DNA of 58,347 nucleotides from an uncultured bacterium (lineage in GTDB: Bacteria > Hydrothermota > Tepidihabitantia > Tepidihabitantales > JBDRVQ01), in contig CAYRLZ010000060.1 of assembly GCA_964425275.1 (NCBI GenBank), positions 1 through 58,347 of the forward strand, written 5' to 3'. The position numbers and the translations under genes are program-made. Positions 2,746 to 56,121 of this stretch are shown here, piece by piece. Position 1 is the first letter of the stretch; every line of letters starts with the position of its first letter. A model generated the notes under the pieces. It was given only the letters and a program-made list of their open reading frames with translations, did not search any database and was not told where the DNA came from.

Positions 2746-2760
2746 ACTTGTGTAAGGCTA

Positions 2761-2928
2761 AGAAGGAGATTTAGAGGAGGACACAGAAAGAGGCACAGGG
2801 AGGGGAAGAAAGAACCTAACAGGGAGCCGGTCAGGAGGAGATAGAGAAGGGGGCTGAGAAAGGAGAAGAGAGGATAAGGAGATAGGGAAAAGGATTAGGG
2901 AAGGGATAGAGAAAGAGACAGGGTAAGA
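2761..2928 (-). repeat. Degenerate distal part of array A1. The 12-nt lattice fades into a polypyrimidine (minus strand) / polypurine (plus strand) tract.
   Basis: The plus strand is almost pure A/G. In-register 12-mers GATAGGGAAAAG, GATTAGGGAAGG, GATAGAGAAAGA and GACAGGGTAAGA lie at 2881-2928. There are many AGGAG/GGA motifs. Confidence 0.7.
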
Positions 2929-3144
2929 GACCGATAATAGCACTCCCAATAGGACGTTTTATAGGACCAAGAATAGCATCACCAATAGCATCCGGAATAG
3001 GACGGAGAATAGGAAAGGGAATAGAACACTCAGTAGGAAAGAGAATAGGATTCCCAATAGGTAAGAGAATAGAATCCTGAATAGAACCCCAAATAGGAAA
3101 GAGAATAGGGATTAGAATAGGACATTTAATACCATCCCGAATAG
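2929..3144 (-). repeat. Array A1: 18 phased 12-nt units with core CTATT (AATAG on the plus strand)
   Basis: Every plus-strand 12-mer from 2929 to 3144 ends in AATAG, with variants AATAC, AGTAG and TATAG. The strand given is the head-first orientation and is inferred. Confidence 0.9.
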
Positions 3145-3207
3145 CACCCCCTATACGACCCCCTATCTTTAAGGGAAAATCCCCTAAGTTTTGGATATTC
3201 AATCACT
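3145..3207 (-). other. A1 head: G-rich 12-mers AAGATAGGGGGT and CGTATAGGGGGT plus a conserved upstream block
   Basis: The minus-strand reading is AGTGATTGAATATCCAAAACTTAGGGGATTTTCCCTTAAAGATAGGGGGTCGTATAGGGGGT. It is homologous to the heads of A2, A3 and A4. Confidence 0.6.
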
Positions 3208-3282
3208 TAATACAAAAAATCGGGCTTAAAAAATATTACTGTCAGTAATATTTTCCTGGTATTCCCTTATGAACTCTTTGGA

Positions 3283-3330: not shown

Positions 3331-4908
3331 TTATTTTATAACCACAAGTTTCTTATCTTCTTTATAGCCTTTGGTCTTAAACCGCAAGAGATAGATTCCC
3401 GCTGGTAGTCTTCTAATAGTAAATAGACCTTTATTCGTCTTTGCTGAATAGATAACTTCACCTAAGATATTGTAGATTTTTAAGGTCGCCATCTCATTCT
3501 TCGGCCAATTGTAATAAACAGTTGTGAAGCCTCTTGTTGGGTTGGAGTTAATCCGGATAGAAGTCGGGCGACTTAATTCCTGATGAGTTCCGGTATTGGG
3601 CAGTGAGGCAAGTAGAGTCGTCGTTCCGATATATTTATAGATAACATTGGTATTATTCCCCTTAATTGCGTAGATACTGCCGTCAAATGTGCAGAGCCCA
3701 CCGCCACCTTTCACATATTTCCTCTCGCTTCCCTTGGGAATCGTATCCTTAGGAACCCAGGCATCATTTGCCGGGTCATACATCCAGAACTCTTTTGTAT
3801 TATTGCCTTTGAAGGCATAGATTTTGCCATTCCAGAGGGTCATTGCAGCGCCTTCGCCGACCTTTTTACTTTTTCGGCAATAGGGATGGATAAAGGGCAT
3901 ACTCTCTTTTTTCGACCAGGAATCACCTTCTGGGCAGTATTGGTAGAATTCATTATATTTTCCCCGCAGGGCATAGATATAACTTCCATCCGAGACTAAA
4001 CAACTGCCGTCACCGTAACCTCTATCGGTTCCGACAATTTCTCGCGCATCTTTTCTTTTTTCCCAACTGTCGCCGGCGATATTAAACCGATAGAATTCCT
4101 TGGTCTTTGAGCCTTTCAAGAGATAGACAAAACCGTTCTGATAAGCGATGCCGGTTCCACCCTTCAATCCCTTTATCCCTGGGACACTGTCTAACTCCTG
4201 CCAGACAGCCGTTGCCCGGTTATAGCGCCAGAATTCCTTGGTTCCAGTTCCTGGGACAATATAAATATTGGTTAAGCCGTCGTCGGTAATACCCGAGCCT
4301 TTCCTTAGGCCGAGTTTATTTTTAATCGGAATGCTGTCAATCCAGAGTGGTGTGGTTCCTGGGAGGTAGGAATAAAAACTCTTTGTATTGTTCCCTTTTA
4401 TGATATAGATTTTGTCACCGGCGGTAATACACCCGCCACCTTTAATCTTCTTTCCATCACCAGTGGTTGGCACAGTATCGGAAAGTTTCTGCCAGTCGCT
4501 GACCGGTCGCGGGATATTTGCCACAGTCACCGAATCGGTCTTTTTATCATTATCCGGATTTTCATCTAAGTCAAGGCAGGTTGTGCATCGGGTAGTAAAG
4601 GTGCCGAGTGGTTGCGCTACCCACGGGTCAAAATAGACTGTTGTCTCCCAGTTTCGGTAGAGCGTCTTTTCTACGGTTTTTGTGCAGGAATAGGCATCAC
4701 CAATCTTAAAGATGACATCAAACCAGGCTACCGGGTCGGTCCCGACATTTTTAATTCGGGCGCGGGGGATGATTGTATCACCAAGTGGGACAGTGCCGGT
4801 CGGGGCATAGATTCTTATCGTTGCCACATCAAACTCTTCCTGTGCCTCACTACTTGTCAGTAGTCCTAAAATAATAAGTAGGGCAATTACTCCGAGTTTC
4901 TTTTTCAT
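3331..4908 (-). CDS. Secreted Kelch-repeat (beta-propeller) protein with T9SS CTD
   Basis: The ORF is 3331..4965. The preferred start is ATG 4908 (MKKKLGVIALLIILGLL signal peptide) preceded by AGGAGG. Repeated IY..KGNNTKEFW.Y blades are present. The C-terminal CTD contains LKIYNILGEVIY...AGIYLLRF. Confidence 0.8.
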   Translation of the reverse strand: MKKKLGVIALLIILGLLTSSEAQEEFDVATIRIYAPTGTVPLGDTIIPRARIKNVGTDPVAWFDVIFKIGDAYSCTKTVEKTLYRNWETTVYFDPWVAQPLGTFTTRCTTCLDLDENPDNDKKTDSVTVANIPRPVSDWQKLSDTVPTTGDGKKIKGGGCITAGDKIYIIKGNNTKSFYSYLPGTTPLWIDSIPIKNKLGLRKGSGITDDGLTNIYIVPGTGTKEFWRYNRATAVWQELDSVPGIKGLKGGTGIAYQNGFVYLLKGSKTKEFYRFNIAGDSWEKRKDAREIVGTDRGYGDGSCLVSDGSYIYALRGKYNEFYQYCPEGDSWSKKESMPFIHPYCRKSKKVGEGAAMTLWNGKIYAFKGNNTKEFWMYDPANDAWVPKDTIPKGSERKYVKGGGGLCTFDGSIYAIKGNNTNVIYKYIGTTTLLASLPNTGTHQELSRPTSIRINSNPTRGFTTVYYNWPKNEMATLKIYNILGEVIYSAKTNKGLFTIRRLPAGIYLLRFKTKGYKEDKKLVVIK

Positions 4909-4971
4909 AATTCCTCCTTTAGGATTTGTCCCTAACCAAAAGTCCTTCTTTTTTCTCTTCACCACTTTCTA

Positions 4972-25390: not shown

Positions 25391-26344
25391 ATGGGGAGAG
25401 ACCCAAAGTTGTTGAAGTTTTTGGACCTAATTTTAGATGGGGGATTTTCGGATATCCGACCGGTCTTTGACCCAAAAACCGAAAAACTGGTCCGTTATCC
25501 GGAGATTGAGCAGGCCTTAGAAAAGAATGCGGCTTTTGTCTCCCGACTCATTGAAGACCTAATTCGGCTCGGCTATTTAAAACGGTCATTCCTTTCTAAG
25601 ATGGTAATCTGTCCGGTCTGCAATTCCCCAGATTTGAGGTATCAAACATTCTGTCATAAGTGTGACTCCCCTTATATTGTAAAAATAAAGATGTTAGAAC
25701 ACCTCTTCTGTAATTATGTAGGAAAAGAGGAAGAGTTCCAGAATGGCCAGCGGCTAATCTGTCCCAAATGTCAAAAGGAACTCTTTATTATTGGTGATGA
25801 TTACAATAGCCCGGGATATAATTATCGGTGTTGTGAGTGTGGGGCAATCAGTCCAACCCCAAAAGAGAAATGGTTCTGTCCCAAGTGCGAAAATTTAATT
25901 GAGCGAGAAGAATTGAAAGATGTTATCCTGTTTTCCTATAAGGTAAACCGCCAGGAGATAGAAAGGCTCCGCAGGGAACGATTGCCGCGGGAAAGGATTA
26001 TAAATATCTTAAAGAAAGATGGCTATGAAGTTGAGGAGAATACGAGGCAAGTCGGTCGCTCCGGCGCCGAACATGAGATAGATATCCTGGCAACCAAATA
26101 TTCTGGGTCAACAACTCATCGGTTAGTGATTGGGTTTTCGATAAATGAGACCGAGATTGATTCCGAAGATGTGATAAAACTTTATGCCAAGGGTTATGAT
26201 GTAAATGCCCAGGATGTAATCTTGGTGGCAATTCCGAAACTATCCCCGGATGCCGAGAATTTTGCCCGACACTATCGGATAAAGGTATTTGAAGAGAAGG
26301 ACTTGGAAAGGTTGGAAGAGGAATTTGCTAGCGCCACCCAATAA
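25391..26344 (+). CDS. wHTH-like / multi-zinc-ribbon / PD-(D/E)xK-like nuclease-fold protein
   Basis: CxxC pairs: CPVC..CHKC, CPKC..CCEC, CPKC. C-terminal GRSGAEHEIDILA...VIGFS block resembles Mrr-type restriction-endonuclease folds. Confidence 0.6.
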   Translation: MGRDPKLLKFLDLILDGGFSDIRPVFDPKTEKLVRYPEIEQALEKNAAFVSRLIEDLIRLGYLKRSFLSKMVICPVCNSPDLRYQTFCHKCDSPYIVKIKMLEHLFCNYVGKEEEFQNGQRLICPKCQKELFIIGDDYNSPGYNYRCCECGAISPTPKEKWFCPKCENLIEREELKDVILFSYKVNRQEIERLRRERLPRERIINILKKDGYEVEENTRQVGRSGAEHEIDILATKYSGSTTHRLVIGFSINETEIDSEDVIKLYAKGYDVNAQDVILVAIPKLSPDAENFARHYRIKVFEEKDLERLEEEFASATQ

Positions 26345-29636: not shown

Positions 29637-29808
29637 TTGTTAAATCAATAACTTATATTTTTTGGCAATTTATATCGGGAGGTAAAAATGAAAGGATTAA
29701 ACTGACACCTAAGGCGTAAAGCGTAGAGCGTTAAACGTATAGCGTATTTTCTAATTCGCACCGCAGGGGATTTTTCTTTTTGGAAAGGGGGGAGTGCTAC
29801 AGGGGGTG
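29637..29808 (+). other. A2 leader/head
   Basis: TTGTTAAATCAATAACTTATATTTTTTGG (29637-29665). Five GCGTA-like heptads (29713-29746). GGGGATTTTTCTTTTTGGAAAGGGGGGAGTGCTACAGGGGGT (29766-29808) is homologous to the A1 head. Confidence 0.55.
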
Positions 29809-30024
29809 CTATTCGGGATGGTATTAAATGCCCTATTTTCTACCCTATTCTCTTGCCTATTCGGAATTCTATTCGGTAGCCTATTCTCTTGCCTATTGGT
29901 AATTCTATTCTTTATCCTATTGAGCGTTCTATTCCCTTTCCTATTAGGAGTTCTATTCTCGGTCCTATTGGGGATGCTATTGTGAGTTCTATTCTCTTTC
30001 CTATTCTATGTTCTATTCTTGGAG
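29809..30024 (+). repeat. Array A2: 18 phased 12-nt units with core CTATT
   Basis: CTATT (once GTATT) occurs at 29809 + 12n for n = 0..17. Collinear with A1. Confidence 0.9.
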
Positions 30025-36492: not shown

Positions 36493-36509
36493 CTACCCAA
36501 AAAGGTCGT

Positions 36510-36557
36510 GGTCAATATGTTCCTGAACGCTTTTAGAAGACTCTAAAATCTCCTCTT
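36510..36557 (-). promoter_or_regulatory. Conserved element R1 containing the perfect palindrome TTTTAGA-AGAC-TCTAAAA (36531-36548)
   Basis: About 80% identical by hand alignment to 40451-40497. Sits upstream of the mreB promoter. Confidence 0.45.
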
Positions 36558-36575: not shown

Positions 36576-36906
36576 TTAGGGGCGGAAATAGAATTCGTAA
36601 TCATCAGTCTGATGAGACCTCTCGACGAAGGGATTATCTTTTGGATGCCCTTTGCGGATAATCTTTCTTTCTACTCAACATAATTATAGACCAAAAATGG
36701 GCAAGCCTTCTTTTTCCAAAACCCGTTTCTTTGGAGATTTTCTAAAAGTGTCGGCCGGGCAAATTCTTATTAAGGTCTCCTTTTTGACGGTAAGATAAGG
36801 TTTTAAGATAAAAACCGCCATAACTTGCTGCCTCCTTAATTTGCGTAAAGAATGTTTTACTCTTAATCTTCATTTTAACCGATTGCCAATTGGCACTCCA
36901 TACCAT
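36576..36906 (-). pseudogene. Decayed DDE (rve/integrase-core) transposase remnant
   Basis: Minus-strand fragments lie in different frames. One is MVWSANWQSVKMKIKSKTFFTQIKEAASYGGFYL (W-Q-x-D-like core start). The other is KGHPKDNPFVERSHQTDDYEFY (the P..NG.VERSH..D.EEFY signature). Stops and frameshifts lie between them. Confidence 0.45.
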
Positions 36907-40385: not shown

Positions 40386-40450
40386 CCCCTATTTTCATAA
40401 AAAAATAAGATTAGTCAAGGAAGGGGGGTAGATTATTCACCGGCGGTCAT

Positions 40451-40497
40451 AGTCAATATCTCCCTTGCGGTTTTTAGAAGACTCTAAAACTCCTCTT
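40451..40497 (-). promoter_or_regulatory. Conserved element R2, second copy of the TTTTAGA-AGAC-TCTAAAA palindrome (40472-40489)
   Basis: Paralogue of 36510-36557. Lies upstream of a weak candidate murA promoter (minus strand: TTGACT = rc 40413-40418, 16 nt, GAAAAT). Confidence 0.45.
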
Positions 40498-40643: not shown

Positions 40644-40835
40644 ATTTTCAATTAGACTTGGAATTAGAAAGAGAATTAGAGAGAGAATTACTAACCCAAT
40701 TAGTTAAAGAATTAGTCTGACAATTAGACACTTAATTACCCTTTCGGTTTGGCAGAGGATTAGTTAGAGAATTAGACAGTAAATTAGGCATTCAATTAGG
40801 CTGGGGATTACGTAAAGAATTAGATAATAAATTAG
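40644..40835 (-). repeat. Array A3: 16 phased 12-nt units with core CTAATT (AATTAG on the plus strand)
   Basis: ATTAG/ATTAC occurs on the plus strand at 40651 + 12n. One unit lacks the core (CAAACCGAAAGG). Confidence 0.9.
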
Positions 40836-40911
40836 ACCCAAAAGGCAACCCAGAGGGCTACCCCCTATCTTTCTTAAAAAATCAAATAAGTTATGTTAAA
40901 TCAAAGACTTA
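40836..40911 (-). other. A3 head: conserved block plus AAGATAGGGGGT, AGCCCTCTGGGT and TGCCTTTTGGGT
   Basis: About 90% identical by hand alignment to 50376-50450. Confidence 0.6.
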
Positions 40912-41005
40912 GGAGTAAAAATCGGACCTTGAAAACTATAACTATTGTTATAGAACTTTTGTTCGGGTCGTAATTAATATGTTTCCCTTGTGGTATGTGG
41001 ATATC

Positions 41006-50159: not shown

Positions 50160-50375
50160 CTAATCAATTAGGTAGAGAATTAGACTCGGAATTAGACTAT
50201 CAATTAGACCGAGAATTAGACAGAGGATTAGCCACAGGAGTACTTCTTCCATTAGTTAGAGAATTAGGATGGCGATTAGACACTTAATTAGCCTTTCGGT
50301 TAGAAAAAGAATTAGTTAGAGAATTAGCCGCTCAATTAGTATCTGGATTAGGCGGAGAATTACACCGAGAATTAA
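50160..50375 (-). repeat. Array A4: 18 phased 12-nt units with core CTAATT
   Basis: ATTAG or a variant occurs on the plus strand at 50167 + 12n. It contains the same core-less unit CTAACCGAAAGG followed by CTAATTAAGTGT as A3. Confidence 0.9.
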
Positions 50376-50450
50376 ACCCGGAAGGCGACCCAGAGGGCAA
50401 CCCCCTATCTTTTTAAAAAATCCCATAAGTTCTGTTAAATCAAAGGCTTA
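50376..50450 (-). other. A4 head: conserved block plus AAGATAGGGGGT, TGCCCTCTGGGT and CGCCTTCCGGGT
   Basis: See the A3 head. The minus-strand reading is TAAGCCTTTGATTTAACAGAACTTATGGGATTTTTTAAAAAGATAGGGGGTTGCCCTCTGGGTCGCCTTCCGGGT. Confidence 0.6.
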
Positions 50451-50471
50451 TACCAAAAAAGGGTATTTGGA

Positions 50472-50507
50472 AACCGGAAGTATATTTCTGGAAGTATACT
50501 TCTGGTT
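50472..50507 (-). terminator. Long hairpin between the lnt-C25 gene and the A4 head; possible terminator
   Basis: AACCGGAAGTATA / TATACTTCTGGTT arms (one G-T pair) with a 10-nt loop. On the minus strand a T6 run follows only after 12 nt, so this is not canonical. Confidence 0.3.
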
Positions 50508-50685: not shown

Positions 50686-53600
50686 TTATTTTATCAAAAT
50701 CACCTTTCGGGAGATAGAGAAATCCTTGGTCTGTAAAGAGAAGAAATAGATACCGGGTGGTAGGCTTCTTTTTCTCTGGTCTTTGCCATCCCATGTTGCC
50801 GTATAAATGCCCGGCTCTTTCACACCCCTGGTTATTGGCCGAACCAAACGACCGGTAATATCATAGATGTTTAATGATAGCCACTGTCGGTTGGGGATTT
50901 GGTACCGGATATTTGTCCTTTGCCGAAATGGATTGGAGTAAGTCAAACTGAATAACGGGCTTTCATAGGGGAGATAATTAGGTGCGGTCACGGTTATGAT
51001 GATTTCGTCCCTTTCTTCTCCGTTGATTGGGAATTTTATCTGCCCATCTTTATCGGTAGTGCCGTAATAGTAGAAATCCGGTGAGAGGGGTTTTGTTAGA
51101 CAGACCAATGCCTTTGGGATTGGTTGGCCGGTGATACTATCCTTTACCTCAACGACAAAAATCTGGGAACCCAAAAATTTATGAGAAACAACCATCGGTT
51201 TTGGGACCTTGGTCCAGATATTCAGTTCCGGGTCACCTAAAAGGCTCCACTCCCGATAGAAATATTCGTTAGCGTCTCCGGAATAGGGAGGAGAGGCGAT
51301 GCTATCCTTGCCTCTTAGAAATGCCTTCCCCAAAATTAAATTATCATTAACCATAACCGTCCGGAGGAAGGTTCGGACGAACCGACCGCGCCAGCGGCCA
51401 AAGCCGCCACCGAGCTGGGTTCCGAAAAAGGCCACGGCACCCTTTAAGTCTTCTCCTCCCCCTTTCACCCGCAGCCACCGCTCACCAACCGTGTTTTCAC
51501 TCTTAAAGATTGTATGGCAGGAACCAGAGATAATTATTGGCAATTTATAACCATTCTGTAACCTTTCGTCCTCCGGCTCAACCGTGAAGGGATAGGCCCA
51601 GTTGCCTGAGGCATGCCCCCGATAGAGAACGAGACTGCTTCCTTCATTTAAGGAGGCGATTATATCATCGGCATCGTCATATCCTTGATGACCAAAGAGT
51701 GTGTCGTTAAAGATTGTGTCAACCTTTGAATAGCGGAGACGGAGGATTGAATCATCATAAGGGAACTCCTCGCTATAAATTGGGTTAGCCGGTCGGCCGC
51801 CAAAGTCCCACATAAATATCAGCGTCGCCCTTTTATACCAGAGGGTATCTTCTCTTTTTGGGAAGCGCTCATAGGTTAAAATCTTTTGCACCATCGTCTG
51901 ACATTCGTCAACATTCCGACAGGGAAGTCGTCCGACCGGTATCTCCGCCCGGTAATCGCCTTCCATATCACCATAAAAATTGTCGCCCAATAAGAGTTGG
52001 TAAGAGTAATAAAGGGAGTCCCCGGGTGGGATATAATTTTTATCCCCAACCAGAAGGAGATACTCCGGACCGATAGATTTTATAATCCTCTTTATTGAAT
52101 CCGGCGAGGCACGATAAGGAACCTTTACAATCTCGGCCTTTACCCCTTTCTTGGTCTTCCACTCTTTTAATGGCTGGAGGGCATCAAAAAACTTCTCATT
52201 AGTGATTATAAGATAACGGCAATCAGTAGCGCCATTGACGATTACCGCACTAAATACAAAAATTAAAAGTCCAACCGACTTCCTCCGATGCAAGCTACCG
52301 CCGGCCATTCTCAGAATGAGAATGATTATTGAAAGATAGATAAACCAATCACCAAATCGCAAATAGAAAGTAGAGGGTAATGGTTTCGGAAGATTTCCGT
52401 AAAGAACCATTTCGGTAAAGAGGGGGGTCTTTTTAATCACCTCACCATAAGGAGAGACGATTAAAGAAATTCCATTATTCGCCGAGCGCAGAAGTGGTTT
52501 CCCCAATTCCACACTCCTCATTACCGCTAACTCGCAATGCTGATAAGGTCCGGGTGTCTTACCAAACCAACCGTCATTGGTAATATTTACCAGAAGGTCG
52601 GCTCCCCTTAAAACAAATTCCCGGGTTAAATCCGGAAAAATTGACTCAAAACAGATAAGGCAACTGGCTTTAGCCAAAGGGGTGGAAAAGACGGTGAATT
52701 CCTTTCCTGGGGTAAAATTTCCCATATCCGCGGTAGCAAAGGGCTTAAAAATTGGGAACTTGTCAATGTAAGGAATCCTTTCGGAGAAAGGGACCGGATG
52801 AATCTTCTTATAAATTCCGGTAATGCCATTTTCCGGGTCAATCAAAACCGCGCCGTTAAAGTAAGCGTTATCCTCATAGATTGGTGTTCCGATTAAGATA
52901 TAGACCCCGTAAGTCTGGCTAATTCTTAAAAACTCATCTTTTAGCCAAATCTCTTTGGTCAAATCAAATAAGGAGGCGGTCTCCGGATAGATTAAAAGGA
53001 AAGGCTTTTCTTTTATCGCCTCTTGAGTCAATTGGAGTAAAGAGCGGATATTCTCTTCTATCGTGCTTCTATCCCCCTTCTCATTCGGGCTGACATTGGG
53101 CTGAATGATTGCCACCTTAAAATTATTCTCTACCCCTTTCATTCGCAAAAGACCATAGGAAAGAGGAATGAGAAAGGTGAGGATTAAAGTTATCGCCCAT
53201 CTTTTCTTTCTGGTAAAGAGTAATTGATAGATTATAAGATTTAAAAAAACGACAAAGGCGGAAAGACCATAGACACCGGTGATGGAGGCGAATTGGATTA
53301 AGGGCAAATAAGGGGTCTGGGTATAACCCAAAAGACCCCAGGGAAAGCCAATCTCTGACTTTGTGCGGATAAACTCAAGGAGTGCCCAGAGCAAAGGGGC
53401 GATAAATAATCCGAACTTCTTCACCCCCAAACCAAAGACCAATCCGTAGAGACCAAAATAACCAAAGAGGACGAAAACTCCAAGGTAGAGAAGAAATTTC
53501 GTCTTCTCCAAAACCGGCACGACCAAAAAATAAAGCCACCAGAGATGAAAAAGGGCAAAGAGGAAAAAGAAGAGGAAGGAATAAAAGAGTGCCTTTTTGA

Positions 53601-53733
53601 GCGATGACTTTGTAATCAAATAAAAGAGCGGGACTAAGGAGAAGTAGGCGAGGAAGCGGAAGGGAAAAGGGGAAAAGGCAAGGTTTAAGGCGAAGGGCGA
53701 GAGAAAGAAAAGAACTTTCCCAAACTTACCCAT
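50686..53733 (-). CDS. lnt: In-frame fusion of apolipoprotein N-acyltransferase (Lnt), C25 gingipain-like cysteine peptidase and T9SS CTD
   Basis: Residues 1-475 hold 8 TM segments and a CN-hydrolase domain (IYPETA, CLICFES, NITNDGWF). From Met476 (nt 52308) there is a signal-peptide-like segment, then C25 blocks (YLLLVGD..IP, VGRLP, YRGHASGNW, IIISGSCHT). The C-terminal CTD contains NIYDITGRLV...PGIYFFSL. Confidence 0.8.
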   Translation of the reverse strand: MGKFGKVLFFLSPFALNLAFSPFPFRFLAYFSLVPLFYLITKSSLKKALFYSFLFFFLFALFHLWWLYFLVVPVLEKTKFLLYLGVFVLFGYFGLYGLVFGLGVKKFGLFIAPLLWALLEFIRTKSEIGFPWGLLGYTQTPYLPLIQFASITGVYGLSAFVVFLNLIIYQLLFTRKKRWAITLILTFLIPLSYGLLRMKGVENNFKVAIIQPNVSPNEKGDRSTIEENIRSLLQLTQEAIKEKPFLLIYPETASLFDLTKEIWLKDEFLRISQTYGVYILIGTPIYEDNAYFNGAVLIDPENGITGIYKKIHPVPFSERIPYIDKFPIFKPFATADMGNFTPGKEFTVFSTPLAKASCLICFESIFPDLTREFVLRGADLLVNITNDGWFGKTPGPYQHCELAVMRSVELGKPLLRSANNGISLIVSPYGEVIKKTPLFTEMVLYGNLPKPLPSTFYLRFGDWFIYLSIIILILRMAGGSLHRRKSVGLLIFVFSAVIVNGATDCRYLIITNEKFFDALQPLKEWKTKKGVKAEIVKVPYRASPDSIKRIIKSIGPEYLLLVGDKNYIPPGDSLYYSYQLLLGDNFYGDMEGDYRAEIPVGRLPCRNVDECQTMVQKILTYERFPKREDTLWYKRATLIFMWDFGGRPANPIYSEEFPYDDSILRLRYSKVDTIFNDTLFGHQGYDDADDIIASLNEGSSLVLYRGHASGNWAYPFTVEPEDERLQNGYKLPIIISGSCHTIFKSENTVGERWLRVKGGGEDLKGAVAFFGTQLGGGFGRWRGRFVRTFLRTVMVNDNLILGKAFLRGKDSIASPPYSGDANEYFYREWSLLGDPELNIWTKVPKPMVVSHKFLGSQIFVVEVKDSITGQPIPKALVCLTKPLSPDFYYYGTTDKDGQIKFPINGEERDEIIITVTAPNYLPYESPLFSLTYSNPFRQRTNIRYQIPNRQWLSLNIYDITGRLVRPITRGVKEPGIYTATWDGKDQRKRSLPPGIYFFSLQTKDFSISRKVILIK

Positions 53734-53781: not shown

Positions 53782-53943
53782 TTAAAAATTTTTGCCTTTT
53801 TCACCATAATATTCCTTTATCTTTTGGGTCAAGCCGTTTGCTAATTCTTTATAAGGAGTGGCTTGTTGAGTCTTAAAATATCTAATCAGAAGTTTTAAGG
53901 TAGAGCCATCTCGGAACACTGCTTTTATGCTCCTTCTTCCCAT
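53782..53943 (-). CDS. Possible 53-codon ORF overlapping the 3' end of the candidate endonuclease gene
   Basis: Not in the track (under 60 aa). Sequence: MGRRSIKAVFRDGSTLKLLIRYFKTQQATPYKELANGLTQKIKEYYGEKGKNF. No SD seen. Confidence 0.2.
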   Translation of the reverse strand: MGRRSIKAVFRDGSTLKLLIRYFKTQQATPYKELANGLTQKIKEYYGEKGKNF

Positions 53944-54665
53944 AACTTCTCGTTATCCAAAATTTTCCTCCAAGTTCTTAATTCTAAATCTTTCACTTCT
54001 TCAAAACTTTTTTCCGGTGTCGCGTCAAAATTAATTTCTGGTAAGCCTGGTAAATTTTCTTTCCACTTTTTAAACCAAGAGAGGATATTATTCCATATCT
54101 CAGGATGCTTTAAATATTTAAATAATTCTTCGCCATAAAAAAGATGGAGTTTAACGCCGTAGAATTTTTCGAGTCTTTTAAGTTGCTGAAGATAATAATT
54201 TTCATTTTTAGAAAGGCCGGGGTCTATAAAATACATAAAACCTACTAATTGTGAGCCGTGTCTTTTATGTAAAATTTCAATCTTCGTTTCAAAATTAGAT
54301 ATCTGCCCTTGCTTTTTAGTAGAATCATGGTCGTCTCTTACCTTTTGCTCAACGAAATAATATATGCGTCCATCCGTAAAATACTGGTCTAATGCTAATG
54401 TTTCGCCACTTTCGTTTACTATACTTTTAGATAAAATTCTAAAGCCAAGGGATTTCAGGATTTCTTCTATTATTTCTTCAAGGGCGTCTCCCATTCGTAT
54501 TTCATGAGATTGAAGAAGGTGTTGTAAAATTTTTGCTCCTGGTTTTGTTGGTCTAAATAAACCGATAAAACGTTCTGGGTTCTCCGCAATTCGCCGCAAA
54601 AGTTCTTTTTTCTCACCTTCAAATATATGTTTGTTCAAAATCGAAGAAAATGCCTTGTAATTCAT
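53925..54665 (-). CDS. Candidate type II restriction endonuclease (PD-(D/E)xK-like)
   Basis: Contains D93...E106-x-K108 (LALDQYF...YYFVEQKVRDD). It is the last gene of a methyltransferase operon. Confidence 0.45.
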   Translation of the reverse strand: MNYKAFSSILNKHIFEGEKKELLRRIAENPERFIGLFRPTKPGAKILQHLLQSHEIRMGDALEEIIEEILKSLGFRILSKSIVNESGETLALDQYFTDGRIYYFVEQKVRDDHDSTKKQGQISNFETKIEILHKRHGSQLVGFMYFIDPGLSKNENYYLQQLKRLEKFYGVKLHLFYGEELFKYLKHPEIWNNILSWFKKWKENLPGLPEINFDATPEKSFEEVKDLELRTWRKILDNEKLWEEGA

Positions 54666-54694
54666 TCGTTCCTCCTGACTTCACATAGTCTTAA

Positions 54695-55168
54695 TCACTT
54701 CTTATATTTTTCAATGTAATACTCCTCTGAGTAAGATGGCAAATCCTCCTTAGAAATAATTTCAAACTCAATCTTATTCTCATGAAGAAATTTAGTTATG
54801 CTTAGTAAAGGGAGATCTAAAAAATAAATTTTATTTACGTCGCTATACTCAAATTTTACATTCTTACCTCTCCATTCCGCTTCCCAGAAGGGCATGTCAT
54901 AAAAATCTTGGCTATTTTCTTCCACATCGTACCGATAAGGATAAATTTTGTTTTTCTCCATTAAGCGTCTTGCCGATAATTCAATTATTACATCACCGTA
55001 GAAAGAAAGATAATCGCTCAAAATATCCGAAAAGCTAATAGTATCTTCGTCATAGCCACTTATTCGCCTTCCTTTTGGAGTAAAAACTTTTTCTTCCAGT
55101 ATAGCAATAAGGTTACTTAGAGATGTTGCGTGATATAAATACTTTGGGAAATTGCCTCCTTTTTTCAT
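54695..55168 (-). CDS. Unknown 157-aa protein inserted between the methyltransferase and the candidate endonuclease
   Basis: The start overlaps the MTase stop (ATGA). N-terminal LYHATSLSNLIAILEE and central WEAEWR motifs. Confidence 0.6.
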   Translation of the reverse strand: MKKGGNFPKYLYHATSLSNLIAILEEKVFTPKGRRISGYDEDTISFSDILSDYLSFYGDVIIELSARRLMEKNKIYPYRYDVEENSQDFYDMPFWEAEWRGKNVKFEYSDVNKIYFLDLPLLSITKFLHENKIEFEIISKEDLPSYSEEYYIEKYKK

Positions 55169-56121
55169 TCAACCACCTCTAAGTTTAGATAATTGTTTAT
55201 GTATTTTTTACCTGTAAATGATAAGTCAAGTATCTTTAATGAACATTTAAACCTTTGTTCTATGCCTTTTACATACTTCGGATTGACTTCGATCATAACG
55301 AAATCCCTTTTTAATGCCTGTGCCACATATCCAGTTGTTCCTGTCCCCGCTACAGGGTCCAAAACCAAATCTCCTTCCTTGGTCGATACCAAAATCACTC
55401 TCCTAAGAAGTTCTATCGGTTTTTGTGTAGAGTGTAGCTTTTTCCCACTTTCATCTTTTAGTCTTTCATCACCCCAGCAGAGAGGTAAAACCCAAACATT
55501 TGCACCAACTTTTCCGATGCCAAACCTTTTGGCGTATTCTTTATTAAAAGTGTATCCCTTAACATGTTTATCCTTTACCGCCCAAATTAAGGTCTCGGTA
55601 GCATTTGTGAACCTCACACCTAACCAATTGGGCATTGGGTTGGTCTTTACCCAAATCACATCGTTGAGAATCCAATAGCCTAAATCTTGCATAATTTTCC
55701 CAATTCTAAAAATGCTGTGGTAAGTAGCAATAACCCAAATTGTAGCAGTTTTTTTCATTACTCTTTTTACCTCCGTGAGCAATTTTTTGATAAATTCATC
55801 GTATTCTTGAAAAGAGGAAAATTTATCCCATTCGTCATTTACCCCTTCAACAACAGTTTTTACCTTCCACCGTCTTAATTCTTTATTTGGTAACTGCAAA
55901 AAATAAGGCGGGTCAATAAAAACCATGTCAAAGACCTCGTCTTCTATTCTTGGGAGAACCTGGAAGGTGTCGCCTAAGATAACTTTATTTCTGATTTCGT
56001 CAATTTTATAAATAGCCTTCCGGTCATTATCCTTTACCAATATCCTCCTACCTTTTCTTTGGCGTCTTTCGTATTTAAACAGAATTTCCTGTTTGGTTTT
56101 AGATTTATCTTTTTCTCCCAT
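55165..56121 (-). CDS. Beta-class N6-adenine (or N4-cytosine) DNA methyltransferase, CcrM/M.HinfI-like
   Basis: FIDPPYF first, then IWVIATYHSIFRIG, NDVIWVKTNPMPN, FTNATETLIWA, HSTQKP and DPVAGTGTTG. This circularly permuted motif order is that of beta-class enzymes. Confidence 0.9.
   Translation of the reverse strand: MGEKDKSKTKQEILFKYERRQRKGRRILVKDNDRKAIYKIDEIRNKVILGDTFQVLPRIEDEVFDMVFIDPPYFLQLPNKELRRWKVKTVVEGVNDEWDKFSSFQEYDEFIKKLLTEVKRVMKKTATIWVIATYHSIFRIGKIMQDLGYWILNDVIWVKTNPMPNWLGVRFTNATETLIWAVKDKHVKGYTFNKEYAKRFGIGKVGANVWVLPLCWGDERLKDESGKKLHSTQKPIELLRRVILVSTKEGDLVLDPVAGTGTTGYVAQALKRDFVMIEVNPKYVKGIEQRFKCSLKILDLSFTGKKYINNYLNLEVVE

Follow-up and report, generated by a model that had tools for sequence, protein, structure and literature searches.

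The window, a 58,347-nucleotide stretch of DNA from an uncultured WOR-3 lineage, carries four tandem arrays of 12-base units, two with the core CTATTC and two with the core CTAATT (Table 1). All 18 units of A2, the array under study, read exactly as given in the original prediction, and its paralog A1 likewise has 18 clear units. CTATT recurring at a period of 12 bases has 32 matches in the window, versus none in 100 shuffles. The arrays are strongly strand-asymmetric (58-67% pyrimidine), with C above G (0.20-0.24 versus 0.10-0.19).

Table 1. Coordinates of the arrays, their leaders and associated features in the window.
Feature	Position	Strand	Description
A1 tail	2746..2928	-	CT-rich; decayed 12-base units, reaching a bidirectional terminator at 2711-2740
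Array A1	2929..3144	-	18 units, core CTATT(C); collinear paralog of A2; orthologous to arrays in L127 and L119
A1 leader	3145..3263	-	25-base palindrome (3230-3254), then T run; ends AAAGATAGGGGGTCGTATAGGGGGTG, in phase with the array
A2-specific heptads	29710..29746	+	Five TAARGCG repeats, in the place of the palindrome and distal leader of other copies
Proximal A2 leader	29765..29808	+	G runs GGGGATTTTT...GGGGGGAGTGCTACAGGGGGTG; sole part of the A2 leader homologous to other CTATT-type copies
Array A2 (finding under study)	29809..30024	+	18 units of 12 bases, core CTATT(C)
Array A3	40644..40835	-	16 units, core CTAATT
A3 leader	40836..40968	-	Palindrome (40936-40953), then T run; conserved block TAAGTCTTTGATT (40899-40911); AAAGATAGGGGGT
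Array A4	50160..50375	-	18 units, core CTAATT; collinear with A3
A4 leader	50376..50505	-	Conserved to about 50459; IHF-consensus block 50438-50450; palindromic 14-base duplication 50476-50505

It had been proposed that A1 and A2 correspond unit by unit, with a single whole-unit indel between them, and a formal unit-aware alignment bears this out: units 1-11 pair one to one, A2 unit 12 is skipped, and A1 units 12-17 are matched with A2 units 13-18. The alignment scores 27, versus 12.0 +/- 2.6 for shuffled unit order (z = 5.9), and none of 1,000 unit-order shuffles reaches the A1/A2 score. A3 and A4 are collinear by the same type of alignment (z = 3.7). Over the seven variable positions of a unit, positional homologs differ at 2.3, whereas non-homologous unit pairs differ at 4.45; units within one array, with about 4.4 differences in 7, are not homogenized. 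Indels among the six CTATT-type homologs comprise whole 12-base units. The proposed collinear paralogy with changes of length in whole units has statistical support, and it extends to orthologs in other genomes.

The heptads reported in front of A2 are real (period 7, 5.3 copies) and, as had been claimed, are lacking in the other copies, whose leaders align to A2 only from position -44 onward. Most copies of the element have a palindrome followed by a T run, resembling an intrinsic terminator. In several copies the palindrome is perfect and its loop is at most one base long, and the arms vary in sequence between copies while complementarity is kept. A single genome contains three different palindromes, which excludes one common operator. 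Within the leader, conservation is highest in the block TAAGTnnTTGATT; like the TAAGTCTTTGATT block of A3, it is the reverse complement of the IHF consensus, WATCAANNNNTTR. This match to the consensus was noticed post hoc; it is exact in A3, A4 and most metagenome copies and absent from A1, and the chance expectation for a leader is about 0.01. The window has 10 matches in all, three of them in element leaders, with 4.25 expected window-wide. The idea of a G-quadruplex at the leader junction was dropped, since conservation of the G runs does not extend to every copy.

A2 belongs to a hitherto undescribed family of dispersed, intergenic, non-coding elements of about 330 bases, specific to a lineage of uncultured WOR-3 bacteria. 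Eleven further arrays were recovered from metagenome contigs of candidate division WOR-3, among them arrays with a third core, CTACCC, and the order of parts is fixed in all copies: palindrome, conserved leader, G-run junction, then 16-20 units. The perfect palindrome lies at a fixed distance of -110 to -119 from the array, usually with a T run after it. The leader spans about 70-110 bases and ends in a junction of ATAGGGGGT-type G-run units that are already in array phase. The 12-base direct units have a 5-6 base core (CTATTC, CTAATT or CTACCC) and a position-specific remainder. One core phase is maintained throughout some 19 arrays comprising more than 300 units. Homologs mostly differ in length by whole units, and the only clear departure is a 13-base unit, with a 1-base insertion, in the CTACCC-type ortholog L269. 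Under coding constraint, indels of 3, 6 or 9 bases would be tolerated as well, and an RNA sponge would accept any indel at all. In the lineage of L170 and L260 the strand that carries CTA has the opposite orientation with respect to the TAGGGGGT leader; the leader similarity on which this inversion is based is modest (z = 3.6-4.2).

The elements occupy convergent, divergent and tandem intergenic regions, and no constant neighboring gene was found among the loci; neighbors include housekeeping genes and genes for T9SS substrates, with an XRE-family helix-turn-helix gene only beside L170-type arrays. When RlmN neighborhoods were compared, the A2 site proved not to be conserved in relatives with 57-68% identical RlmN. 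The same comparison revealed the CTACCC-type arrays. No homologous arrays were found in IMG/VR, plasmids or phages, where the CTATTC-periodic matches on viral contigs are near-identical simple repeats. A search of genome contigs with a periodic pattern of five CTAWT cores gave, among the matches listed, ordinary tandem repeats only. The part of the literature covered by our search holds no description of such arrays.

On another reading the element would be a selfish or neutral repeat, of the MITE or minisatellite kind, that has come to occupy harmless intergenic sites, does nothing for the host and owes the similarity of its copies to recent spread or gene conversion. We consider this unlikely, although several observations fit it: the contexts are dispersed and unrelated, homology ends sharply at about -120 to -139 and at the end of the array, L131, which at 89% identity is nearest to A2, occupies a non-syntenic site, arrays decay at their distal end as in the A1 tail, and the A2 leader has been partly replaced. 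Against it, the units are not homogenized within an array as noted above, array length is held at 16-20 units, and inspection revealed no terminal inverted repeats, no transposase gene and no target duplications (the latter judged by eye at the copy ends). The comparison of orthologs also speaks against it. Between A1 and its syntenic ortholog L127, the leader is 98% identical, the core is identical at 88 of 90 positions, and the variable positions at 91 of 126 (0.72); in the flanking gene, 4-fold sites, taken as the reference, are identical at only 0.52 (Fisher p = 0.008). The corresponding values for L170 and L260 are 0.67 versus 0.55 (p = 0.014); the four L170-type orthologs are likewise conserved, and in them the junction block is invariant. 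Collinearity holds across genomes, such that orthologous arrays keep their unit order. The suggestion that the variable 7-mers are inherited, and are not spacer-like acquisitions, is thereby strengthened, as unit-specific 7-mers are more conserved between species than neutral sites. These comparisons show that the element is kept by purifying selection acting on the nucleotides, that is, on the DNA or RNA sequence itself.

The earlier argument that the repeat is non-coding was built on mismatched reading frames, and it stands in part. A1 is indeed stop-free only in the xCT-ATT (Pro-Ile) frame, which has a TAG in A2 unit 6. The Leu-Phe (CTA-TTC) frame does contain a TAA in A1 unit 3, but A2, said to be open in that frame, is open over its full length in no frame: a TGA in unit 15 ends the open reading frame at 29794..29985. 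A frame mismatch between two copies is also too weak on its own to decide the matter, since in five of the six CTATT-type arrays the Leu-Phe frame starts at a conserved ATG in unit 1 and stays open until a stop somewhere in units 13-17, so that A1 could be a pseudogene. The non-coding conclusion is instead upheld by independent tests.

Taken at face value, the open Leu-Phe frames of the CTATT-type arrays would encode a small, wholly hydrophobic membrane peptide, M-V-L-N-A-(L-F/L-small-hydrophobic)n, of 47-62 residues and resembling a type I toxin. In keeping with such a peptide, the conserved unit-1 ATG is preceded by GGGGG, four of the five open arrays have, close to their 3' end, a unit reading CTATAAA or CTATAGA, which supplies the closing stop in three of them, and both differences between unit 10 of A1 and of A2 (CTACTGAGTGTT versus CTATTGAGCGTT) are synonymous in the Leu-Phe frame. 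The pattern of substitution argues otherwise. Pooled pN/pS is about 1 in both frames (1.0 in Leu-Phe, 1.01 in Pro-Ile), in answer to the suggested check for codon constraint; substitutions show no 3-base periodicity and no excess at third codon positions, and synonymous variation is never seen in the core codons. By position in the unit, substitution rates range from 0 to 0.07 within the core and from 0.24 to 0.39 at positions 6-12. Arrays of the CTAATT and CTACCC types share the leader and are closed or frameshifted in the equivalent frames: those with CTAATT contain stops, and the 13-base unit of L269 would be a frameshift in a coding reading. The number of stops in the arrays is that predicted from base composition. 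Searches of 5.8 billion clustered and 1.84 billion representative proteins gave no homolog of either ORF product, the three weak matches being unrelated low-complexity proteins. Gene callers left the array region empty on a full-length contig copy (L165) and, on a shorter copy (L166), their sole call across the array was a fragment of 50 residues, truncated where the contig ends. A peptide product is thus highly improbable, and the combined sequence tests show that the element does not code for protein.

We also looked for signs that the element acts as a structured or independently transcribed RNA. Only a tRNA reaches the Rfam gathering score in the window, and the A2 locus gives nothing meaningful at E <= 10. 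The arrays fold with no excess stability over shuffled sequences (z = +1.3, +1.8, -0.8 and +0.8), and the RNAalifold covariation terms, which answer the proposed check for RNA pairing, are positive, that is, a penalty, on both strands; the sole structural exception is the leader palindrome, with arms that remain complementary despite differing in sequence. Hairpins with a 24-base super-period (AUUCUC pairing with GGGAAU) were considered and are not supported by the folding or alifold tests. Complementarity of array and leader segments to other parts of the window does not exceed the chance level. No canonical promoter was found in the conserved leader in either orientation, although TTGACA-17-TATAAT promoters are obvious elsewhere in this genome, and inspection by eye gave no convincing match to sigma-54, sigma-28, ECF-type or Bacteroidetes-type motifs. 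An intrinsic terminator follows the array in only four of 15 elements.

These results bear on the possibility, which we regard as doubtful, that the array is an unstructured non-coding RNA serving as a sponge or scaffold, in which each of some 18 single-stranded CUAUU/CUAAU motifs on the transcript would be the site for a single subunit of an RNA-binding protein. Such an RNA might work in the manner of CsrB/RsmZ or CrcZ, or might load a ring- or filament-forming protein with a fixed footprint, a suggestion held with the same doubt. CsrB itself has about 18 GGA-containing repeats in about 350 nucleotides. The likeness lies in some 18 short motifs within a non-coding element of about 300 nucleotides (220-330 nucleotides here) with several paralogs per genome. 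Folding no better or worse than shuffled sequence is what single-stranded display predicts, and the strong strand asymmetry, the near-invariant leader with conservation as in RNA genes, the terminator-like hairpin that is part of the conserved element and has stems that covary between copies, and the presence of copies between convergent genes, a location that would suit nothing but an independent unit, all agree with it. On the other side, the conserved part has no recognizable promoter in either orientation, there is no Rfam match, terminators seldom follow the array, and the conserved hairpin, read on the strand where it has its T run, precedes the array. The core contains neither a GGA nor a CA motif, and, unlike CsrB, RsmZ and CrcZ, the WOR-3 arrays display CUAUU/CUAAU without hairpin loops, at a rigid 12-nucleotide spacing and with conserved unit order. 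A sponge would need neither that spacing nor conserved unit-specific sequences, and the inversion of the core strand relative to the leader in L170/L260 also counts against it.

A second reading at the RNA level, that the pyrimidine-rich strand is an idealized Rho-loading (rut) site for Rho-dependent termination between transcription units, is very unlikely in our estimation, and equally so the accompanying mechanism, in which YC dinucleotides would be presented every 12 nucleotides or so on unstructured RNA with more C than G. The six primary sites of Rho bind YC dinucleotides spread over some 70-80 nucleotides. The arrays are unstructured and C exceeds G in them; from base counts, unit junctions form YC in about 80% of cases in CTATT arrays and about 70% in CTAATT arrays, and the C-rich strand is co-directional with the upstream gene in A1, A4, L127 and L170/L260. 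About half of the copies, however, have no co-directional upstream gene, several arrays lie directly upstream of the promoter of a co-oriented gene, and for a rut site 18 units in a conserved order would be unnecessary, as would a leader that is 98% conserved.

The explanation that we put first, tentatively, is that the array is a phased multi-site platform for a protein bound to double-stranded DNA, with one protomer per 12-base step. An oligomerizing, sequence-specific protein would begin assembly at the leader and form a nucleoprotein filament like that on an iteron or centromere. Because a step of 12 bp differs from the helical repeat of about 10.5 bp per turn, successive sites would spiral around the DNA, and the position-specific half of each unit might tune local affinity or DNA shape. 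Possible roles include chromosome organization, insulation between transcription units and titration of a factor. Like iterons and centromeres, the arrays consist of direct repeats with a fixed spacing near the helical repeat, which over more than 300 units is broken once. Further observations point to DNA over RNA: the lack of a canonical leader promoter together with a terminator in so few elements; the absence of excess folding energy or covariation on either strand; the inverted core strand of L170/L260; the perfect palindromes with almost no loop; the post hoc match of the leader block to the reverse-complement IHF consensus; and the occurrence in all three types of intergenic site without a constant neighbor. 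On balance, we infer that binding to double-stranded DNA is slightly favored over an unstructured RNA sponge.

Several observations count against this DNA platform. The strand asymmetry is more typical of features that are read on one strand, and the palindrome with its T run is terminator-like in most copies. The Pfam scan yielded no partition, replication-initiator or helix-turn-helix genes in the window, and no cognate-protein gene (Rep, ParR or TubR) was found beside the arrays. Iteron and centromere arrays described to date have far fewer units, adjoin the genes of their binding proteins and are not known to be scattered across a chromosome. The nearest parallels are the iteron- and centromere-like systems parC/ParR and tubC/TubR; the iterons of tubC are short direct repeats bound by the filament-forming DNA-binding protein TubR (PMC6009700). 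These systems and the WOR-3 arrays share short direct repeats in blocks with a fixed spacing of about 11-12 bp and, given length changes in whole units, preservation of phase. In parC and tubC the protein binds cooperatively and spreads along the repeats, which for the WOR-3 arrays is proposed only. The WOR-3 arrays differ in being chromosomal, dispersed and multicopy, in having 16-20 units versus about 4-14, in having no adjoining par, tub or rep genes, and in having a position-specific half-unit that is conserved between species.

The layout also invites comparison with CRISPR: a conserved AT-rich leader stands at one end, here with an IHF-consensus block, constant and variable segments alternate, and the array is polar, with degenerate distal units. 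A CRISPR array can nevertheless be rejected, as the period is 12 bases (6 + 6) versus about 60-70, CRISPR repeats being about 23-55 bases long with unique spacers, and the repeats are non-palindromic. Unlike spacers, the variable parts are inherited, shared collinearly by paralogs and orthologs, and compositionally patterned; the Pfam matches in the window include no cas genes, with 46 of about 51 long ORFs scanned directly and four of the other five covered by families recorded for the same genes. Among other repeats, REP/BIME elements with IHF sites, MIRU and the cyanobacterial STRR heptamers are dispersed and intergenic, with functions that are largely unknown or architectural, and they resemble the present element either in combining a palindrome with an IHF-like site (BIME-1/RIP) or in having short tandem units (STRR, MIRU). 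To our knowledge, none of them joins a long phased array to a conserved leader some 110 bases in length, and none has units that are individually conserved rather than homogenized. ToxI, the antitoxin of type III toxin-antitoxin systems, has 2-6 near-identical units of about 36 nucleotides, followed by a terminator and the toxin gene. It too is a non-coding element of tandem direct repeats and acts through protein binding, but the WOR-3 arrays show none of its traits in unit size, near-identity, copy number or the terminator and toxin gene. Type III antitoxin arrays were dropped, as were a replication origin, DnaA or CtrA boxes, primase CTA initiation sites, IS200/IS605 ends, and the origin stem-loops of circular Rep-encoding ssDNA viruses of the geminivirus or circovirus type.

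It is possible, and we hold this with a little less assurance than the DNA platform itself, that the family represents a bacterial genetic element of a new class, in which a 12-base array with rigid phase, nucleated at the leader and made up of position-specific units, would assemble a defined nucleoprotein or ribonucleoprotein filament, similar to CRISPR in layout and unrelated in mechanism, with several diverged cores across WOR-3. What is known of uncultured phyla such as WOR-3 comes almost entirely from protein-coding genes, and here a non-coding family is clearly under selection, with a leader that evolves far more slowly than the neighboring genes, a unit order kept across species, and no match to any RNA family, mobile element or repeat class with which it was compared. 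If the arrays are a phased protein-binding scaffold, they imply an unknown DNA- or RNA-binding system in the WOR-3 lineage, and its cognate protein could be sought through phylogenetic profiling, candidates being the XRE-family gene beside the L170-type arrays and homologs of HU/IHF. In practical terms, 12-base tandem repeats yield long spurious ORFs, which annotation pipelines should leave uncalled.

Arrays A1 and A2, two of the four arrays of 12-base units in the window (see table), are homologous unit by unit. When units were aligned on their seven non-core positions, with gaps allowed only as whole units, units 1-11 paired one to one, A2 unit 12 was skipped, and A1 units 12-17 matched A2 units 13-18. 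The alignment scored 27, versus 12.0 +/- 2.6 for shuffled unit order, and none of 1,000 shuffles scored as high, bearing out the original prediction of collinearity broken by a one-unit indel; the listed A2 units were also reproduced exactly. Positional homologues differ at 2.3 of seven positions, compared with 4.45 for other unit pairs. CTATT at a 12-base period gave 32 matches in the window versus 0 in 100 shuffles. A3 and A4 are also mutually collinear (z = 3.7). All four arrays are intergenic and have the leader, the conserved DNA preceding the array, on the same side; A2 retains just its last 44 bases.

Coordinates of the arrays and of other features in the window and in related loci.
Feature	Coordinates	Strand	Remarks
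Array A1	2929-3144	-	18 units matching A2
A1 tail	2746-2928		
Array A2	29809-30024	+	18 units x 12 bases
A2 heptads	29710-29746		TAARGCG
Promoter-like site	29662-29689		TTGGCA-16-AAAAAT
Array A3	40644-40835	-	core CTAATT
Array A4	50160-50375	-	core CTAATT
T9SS sorting-domain genes	31-2694, 3331-4965, 50686-53733, L170:6503-8890		C-terminal domain
XRE-family helix-turn-helix gene	L170:9282-9974, L260:554-1237, L267:3345-4049, L269:5287-5991		
45-base direct repeat	36504-36548, 40445-40489		80% identical
TackOD1/Mrr-like gene	25391-26344		
N6/N4 DNA methylase gene	55165-56121		
Two ORFs without Pfam match	53925-55168		

When metagenomes were scanned for the leader motif AAAGATAGGGGGTNGNNNNNNGGGT, 46 loci were returned, 11 of which, all from two JGI samples, are true homologues (five CTATT-type and six CTAATT-type, with 16-20 units apiece). 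Pairwise BLAST shows homology from about -110 to -139 ahead of the array through to the array end, which gives the element a length of about 330 bases. The window corresponds to ENA contig ERZ27245602:k141_41281, and homologues of its RlmN are annotated as candidate division WOR-3. Sampling of RlmN neighbourhoods in these relatives uncovered a third core type, CTACCC + 6N, in four orthologous loci (L170, L260, L267/L268 and L269). Their arrays are collinear, with unit order kept among orthologues, and each terminates in the same invariant block, GGCTACCCCCTRAGCCGC..ATACCGCTACCCCGCCATACCCCC, the counterpart of the ATAGGGGGT junction in the window elements. The three core types are linked by the L260 array, which also holds CTATTC and CTAATC units.

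From leader to array, the element consists of a perfect palindrome, the leader, AAAGATAGGGGGT and the units. The palindrome starts 110-119 bases ahead of the array and its arms vary by copy (AAAATATTACTG/CAGTAATATTTT, CTATAAC/GTTATAG and GTTAGTTA/TAACTAAC), with further different palindromes in L152 and, from the alignment of CTACCC-type loci, L267; symmetry, rather than one particular sequence, therefore seems to be kept. A run of T follows the palindrome in most copies, and the leader contains the near-invariant blocks AAGnCCGATTTTT, TAAGTnnTTGATT, AACTTA and GATTTT. CTATT-type elements have a further ATAGGGGGT 12 bases after AAAGATAGGGGGT, already in array phase. Core positions 1-5 of the units are almost invariant, and conservation declines gradually from position 6 to 12. 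The core keeps to a single 12-base phase throughout some 19 arrays comprising over 300 units. As proposed originally, length changes between homologues are of whole units, the sole clear exception being one 13-base unit in L269. Distal units are decayed, and the CT-rich tail of A1, 180 bases long, consists of degenerate 12-base units, which suggests that the array formerly comprised about 30 units or that decay proceeds from the distal end. The predicted A2-specific heptads are real: five stand in place of the palindrome and distal leader, with a weak promoter-like site just upstream. In L127, a second, partial leader-like motif, AAAGAGATAGGGGTATAAGGAGATTTT, occurs at about 1060-1090, some 70 bases past the distal end of the array.

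A1 and the related locus L127 are syntenic; the product of the flanking gene has Kelch repeats and a sorting domain for type IX secretion (T9SS). The two proteins are 72% identical, with 0.52 of 4-fold sites identical, while the leaders are 98% identical over 119 bases and the arrays agree at 88/90 core and 91/126 (0.72) variable unit positions (Fisher p = 0.008, variable positions versus 4-fold sites). For L170 and L260, identity is 0.52-0.60 at 4-fold sites in three flanking genes, compared with 0.67 at non-CTA array positions (p = 0.014) and about 95% at the junction. Because leader and unit identity exceeds that of 4-fold sites, and units of one array are not homogenised (4.3-4.6 differences per 7), purifying selection at the nucleotide level maintains both the unit-specific sequences and the leader, the latter being, on these comparisons, by far the most constrained part. 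That the element is instead a selfish repeat we consider unlikely. Searches of plasmids, phages and IMG/VR found nothing similar to the arrays.

The arrays had been called non-coding from the mismatched open frames of A1 and A2. This argument is suggestive but insufficient, because in five of six CTATT arrays the Leu-Phe (CTA-TTC) frame begins at a conserved ATG and stays open until a stop in units 13-17, with a wholly hydrophobic product; coding was therefore tested directly. The frame assignments themselves were right, except that no frame of A2 stays open over the full array, its Leu-Phe frame being ended by a TGA in unit 15. Pooling all aligned homologous units gave a pN/pS of 1.00 for the Leu-Phe frame and 1.01 for the Pro-Ile (CCT-ATT) frame. 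Across all six frames the ratio spans 0.5-1.1; some of these frames are closed by a stop in each unit, so that the low values stem from the invariance of the core. Mismatches along the unit are not concentrated at third codon positions, the core has no synonymous variation (CTA, TTC, CCT and ATT are fixed), and stops per frame agree with the column-shuffle expectation. In L269 the frame is shifted with respect to the orthologous arrays. No homologue of either ORF product was found by shared 5-residue words in a 5.8-billion-cluster protein collection, and the Leu-Phe product had just three matches among 1.84 billion representatives, all unrelated low-complexity proteins. The CTATT type alone might encode a hydrophobic peptide, but this is highly improbable; the CTAATT arrays have the same leader, yet carry stops in the frame in register with either candidate. 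We conclude that the arrays are non-coding, and the original prediction stands overall, on stronger grounds than its own. What emerges is a genuine, selected and previously undescribed non-coding family from an uncultured phylum; each element is modular, keeps a rigid 12-base register and has units specific to their position.

On such an array an oligomerising protein would find a binding site at every 12-base step, and its assembly would be nucleated at the leader. We tentatively favour double-stranded DNA as the bound form, because promoter and terminator signals are lacking, as is RNA structure. Textbook promoters exist in the genome (TTGACA-17-TATAGT before a tRNA, TTGACA-17-TATAAT at about 25350), but none of this type was found in the conserved leader in either orientation; an intrinsic terminator follows the array in only 4/15 elements. 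In 7/15 the next gene has a strong promoter that begins 9-80 bases past the distal end of the array. The array matches no Rfam family, neither strand shows excess folding stability or covariation, and no complementarity to the rest of the window was found. Double-stranded DNA is also favoured because in one lineage, L170/L260, the CTA core is found on the other strand with respect to the TAGGGGGT junction, because the loop of several palindromes is only 0-1 base long, and because the leader holds a putative IHF-like block: TAAGTnnTTGATT is the IHF consensus on the opposite strand, and of the 10 consensus matches in the window, against 4.25 expected there overall, three fall in element leaders. 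Finally, the element is indifferent to neighbour orientation, its neighbours being unrelated housekeeping or T9SS-secreted-protein genes in all relative orientations. An unstructured RNA sponge or scaffold is a serious rival, if rather unlikely in itself, given the strong strand asymmetry, the terminator-like look of the hairpin and a leader conserved like an RNA gene. A Rho-loading array is very unlikely.

The closest functional likeness is to iteron and centromere arrays (parC, tubC), direct repeats with protein spreading along them (PMC6009700), although of the defining features of iteron arrays only the spacing was recognised in the element. It is also similar to multi-site sponge RNAs and, in layout, to CRISPR (leader, polarity, alternating constant and variable segments). 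CRISPR, CsrB-type RNA and a coding gene were each rejected, as the element lacks their defining features. It may conceivably be a new class of element altogether, although we consider this rather unlikely.

In CTACCC-type loci, an XRE-family helix-turn-helix gene begins directly past the element, and the palindrome, which differs between orthologues (L170 versus L267), sits between -35-like (CTTGAY) and -10-like sequences of this gene. The XRE-family protein is a candidate partner. T9SS sorting-domain genes flank A1 (on both sides), A4, and the L142 and L170-type arrays; with each set of orthologous loci counted singly, the excess over background is marginal.

Elsewhere in the window, TackOD1 and Mrr-like nuclease domains are fused in one gene, and an N6/N4 DNA methylase gene adjoins two ORFs without Pfam match; both may be defence-related and unconnected with the arrays. 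The 545-base spacer between mreB and a tRNA gene contains, at about 36600-36630, a string resembling a hammerhead ribozyme core (CTGATGAG...CGAA), which matched no Rfam family even at E <= 1. Two minus-strand cell-wall genes, mreB (start 36458) and murA (start 40385), are each preceded at a distance of about 50-100 bases by a copy of the 45-base direct repeat, which may be a common 5' leader or regulatory element of the two.
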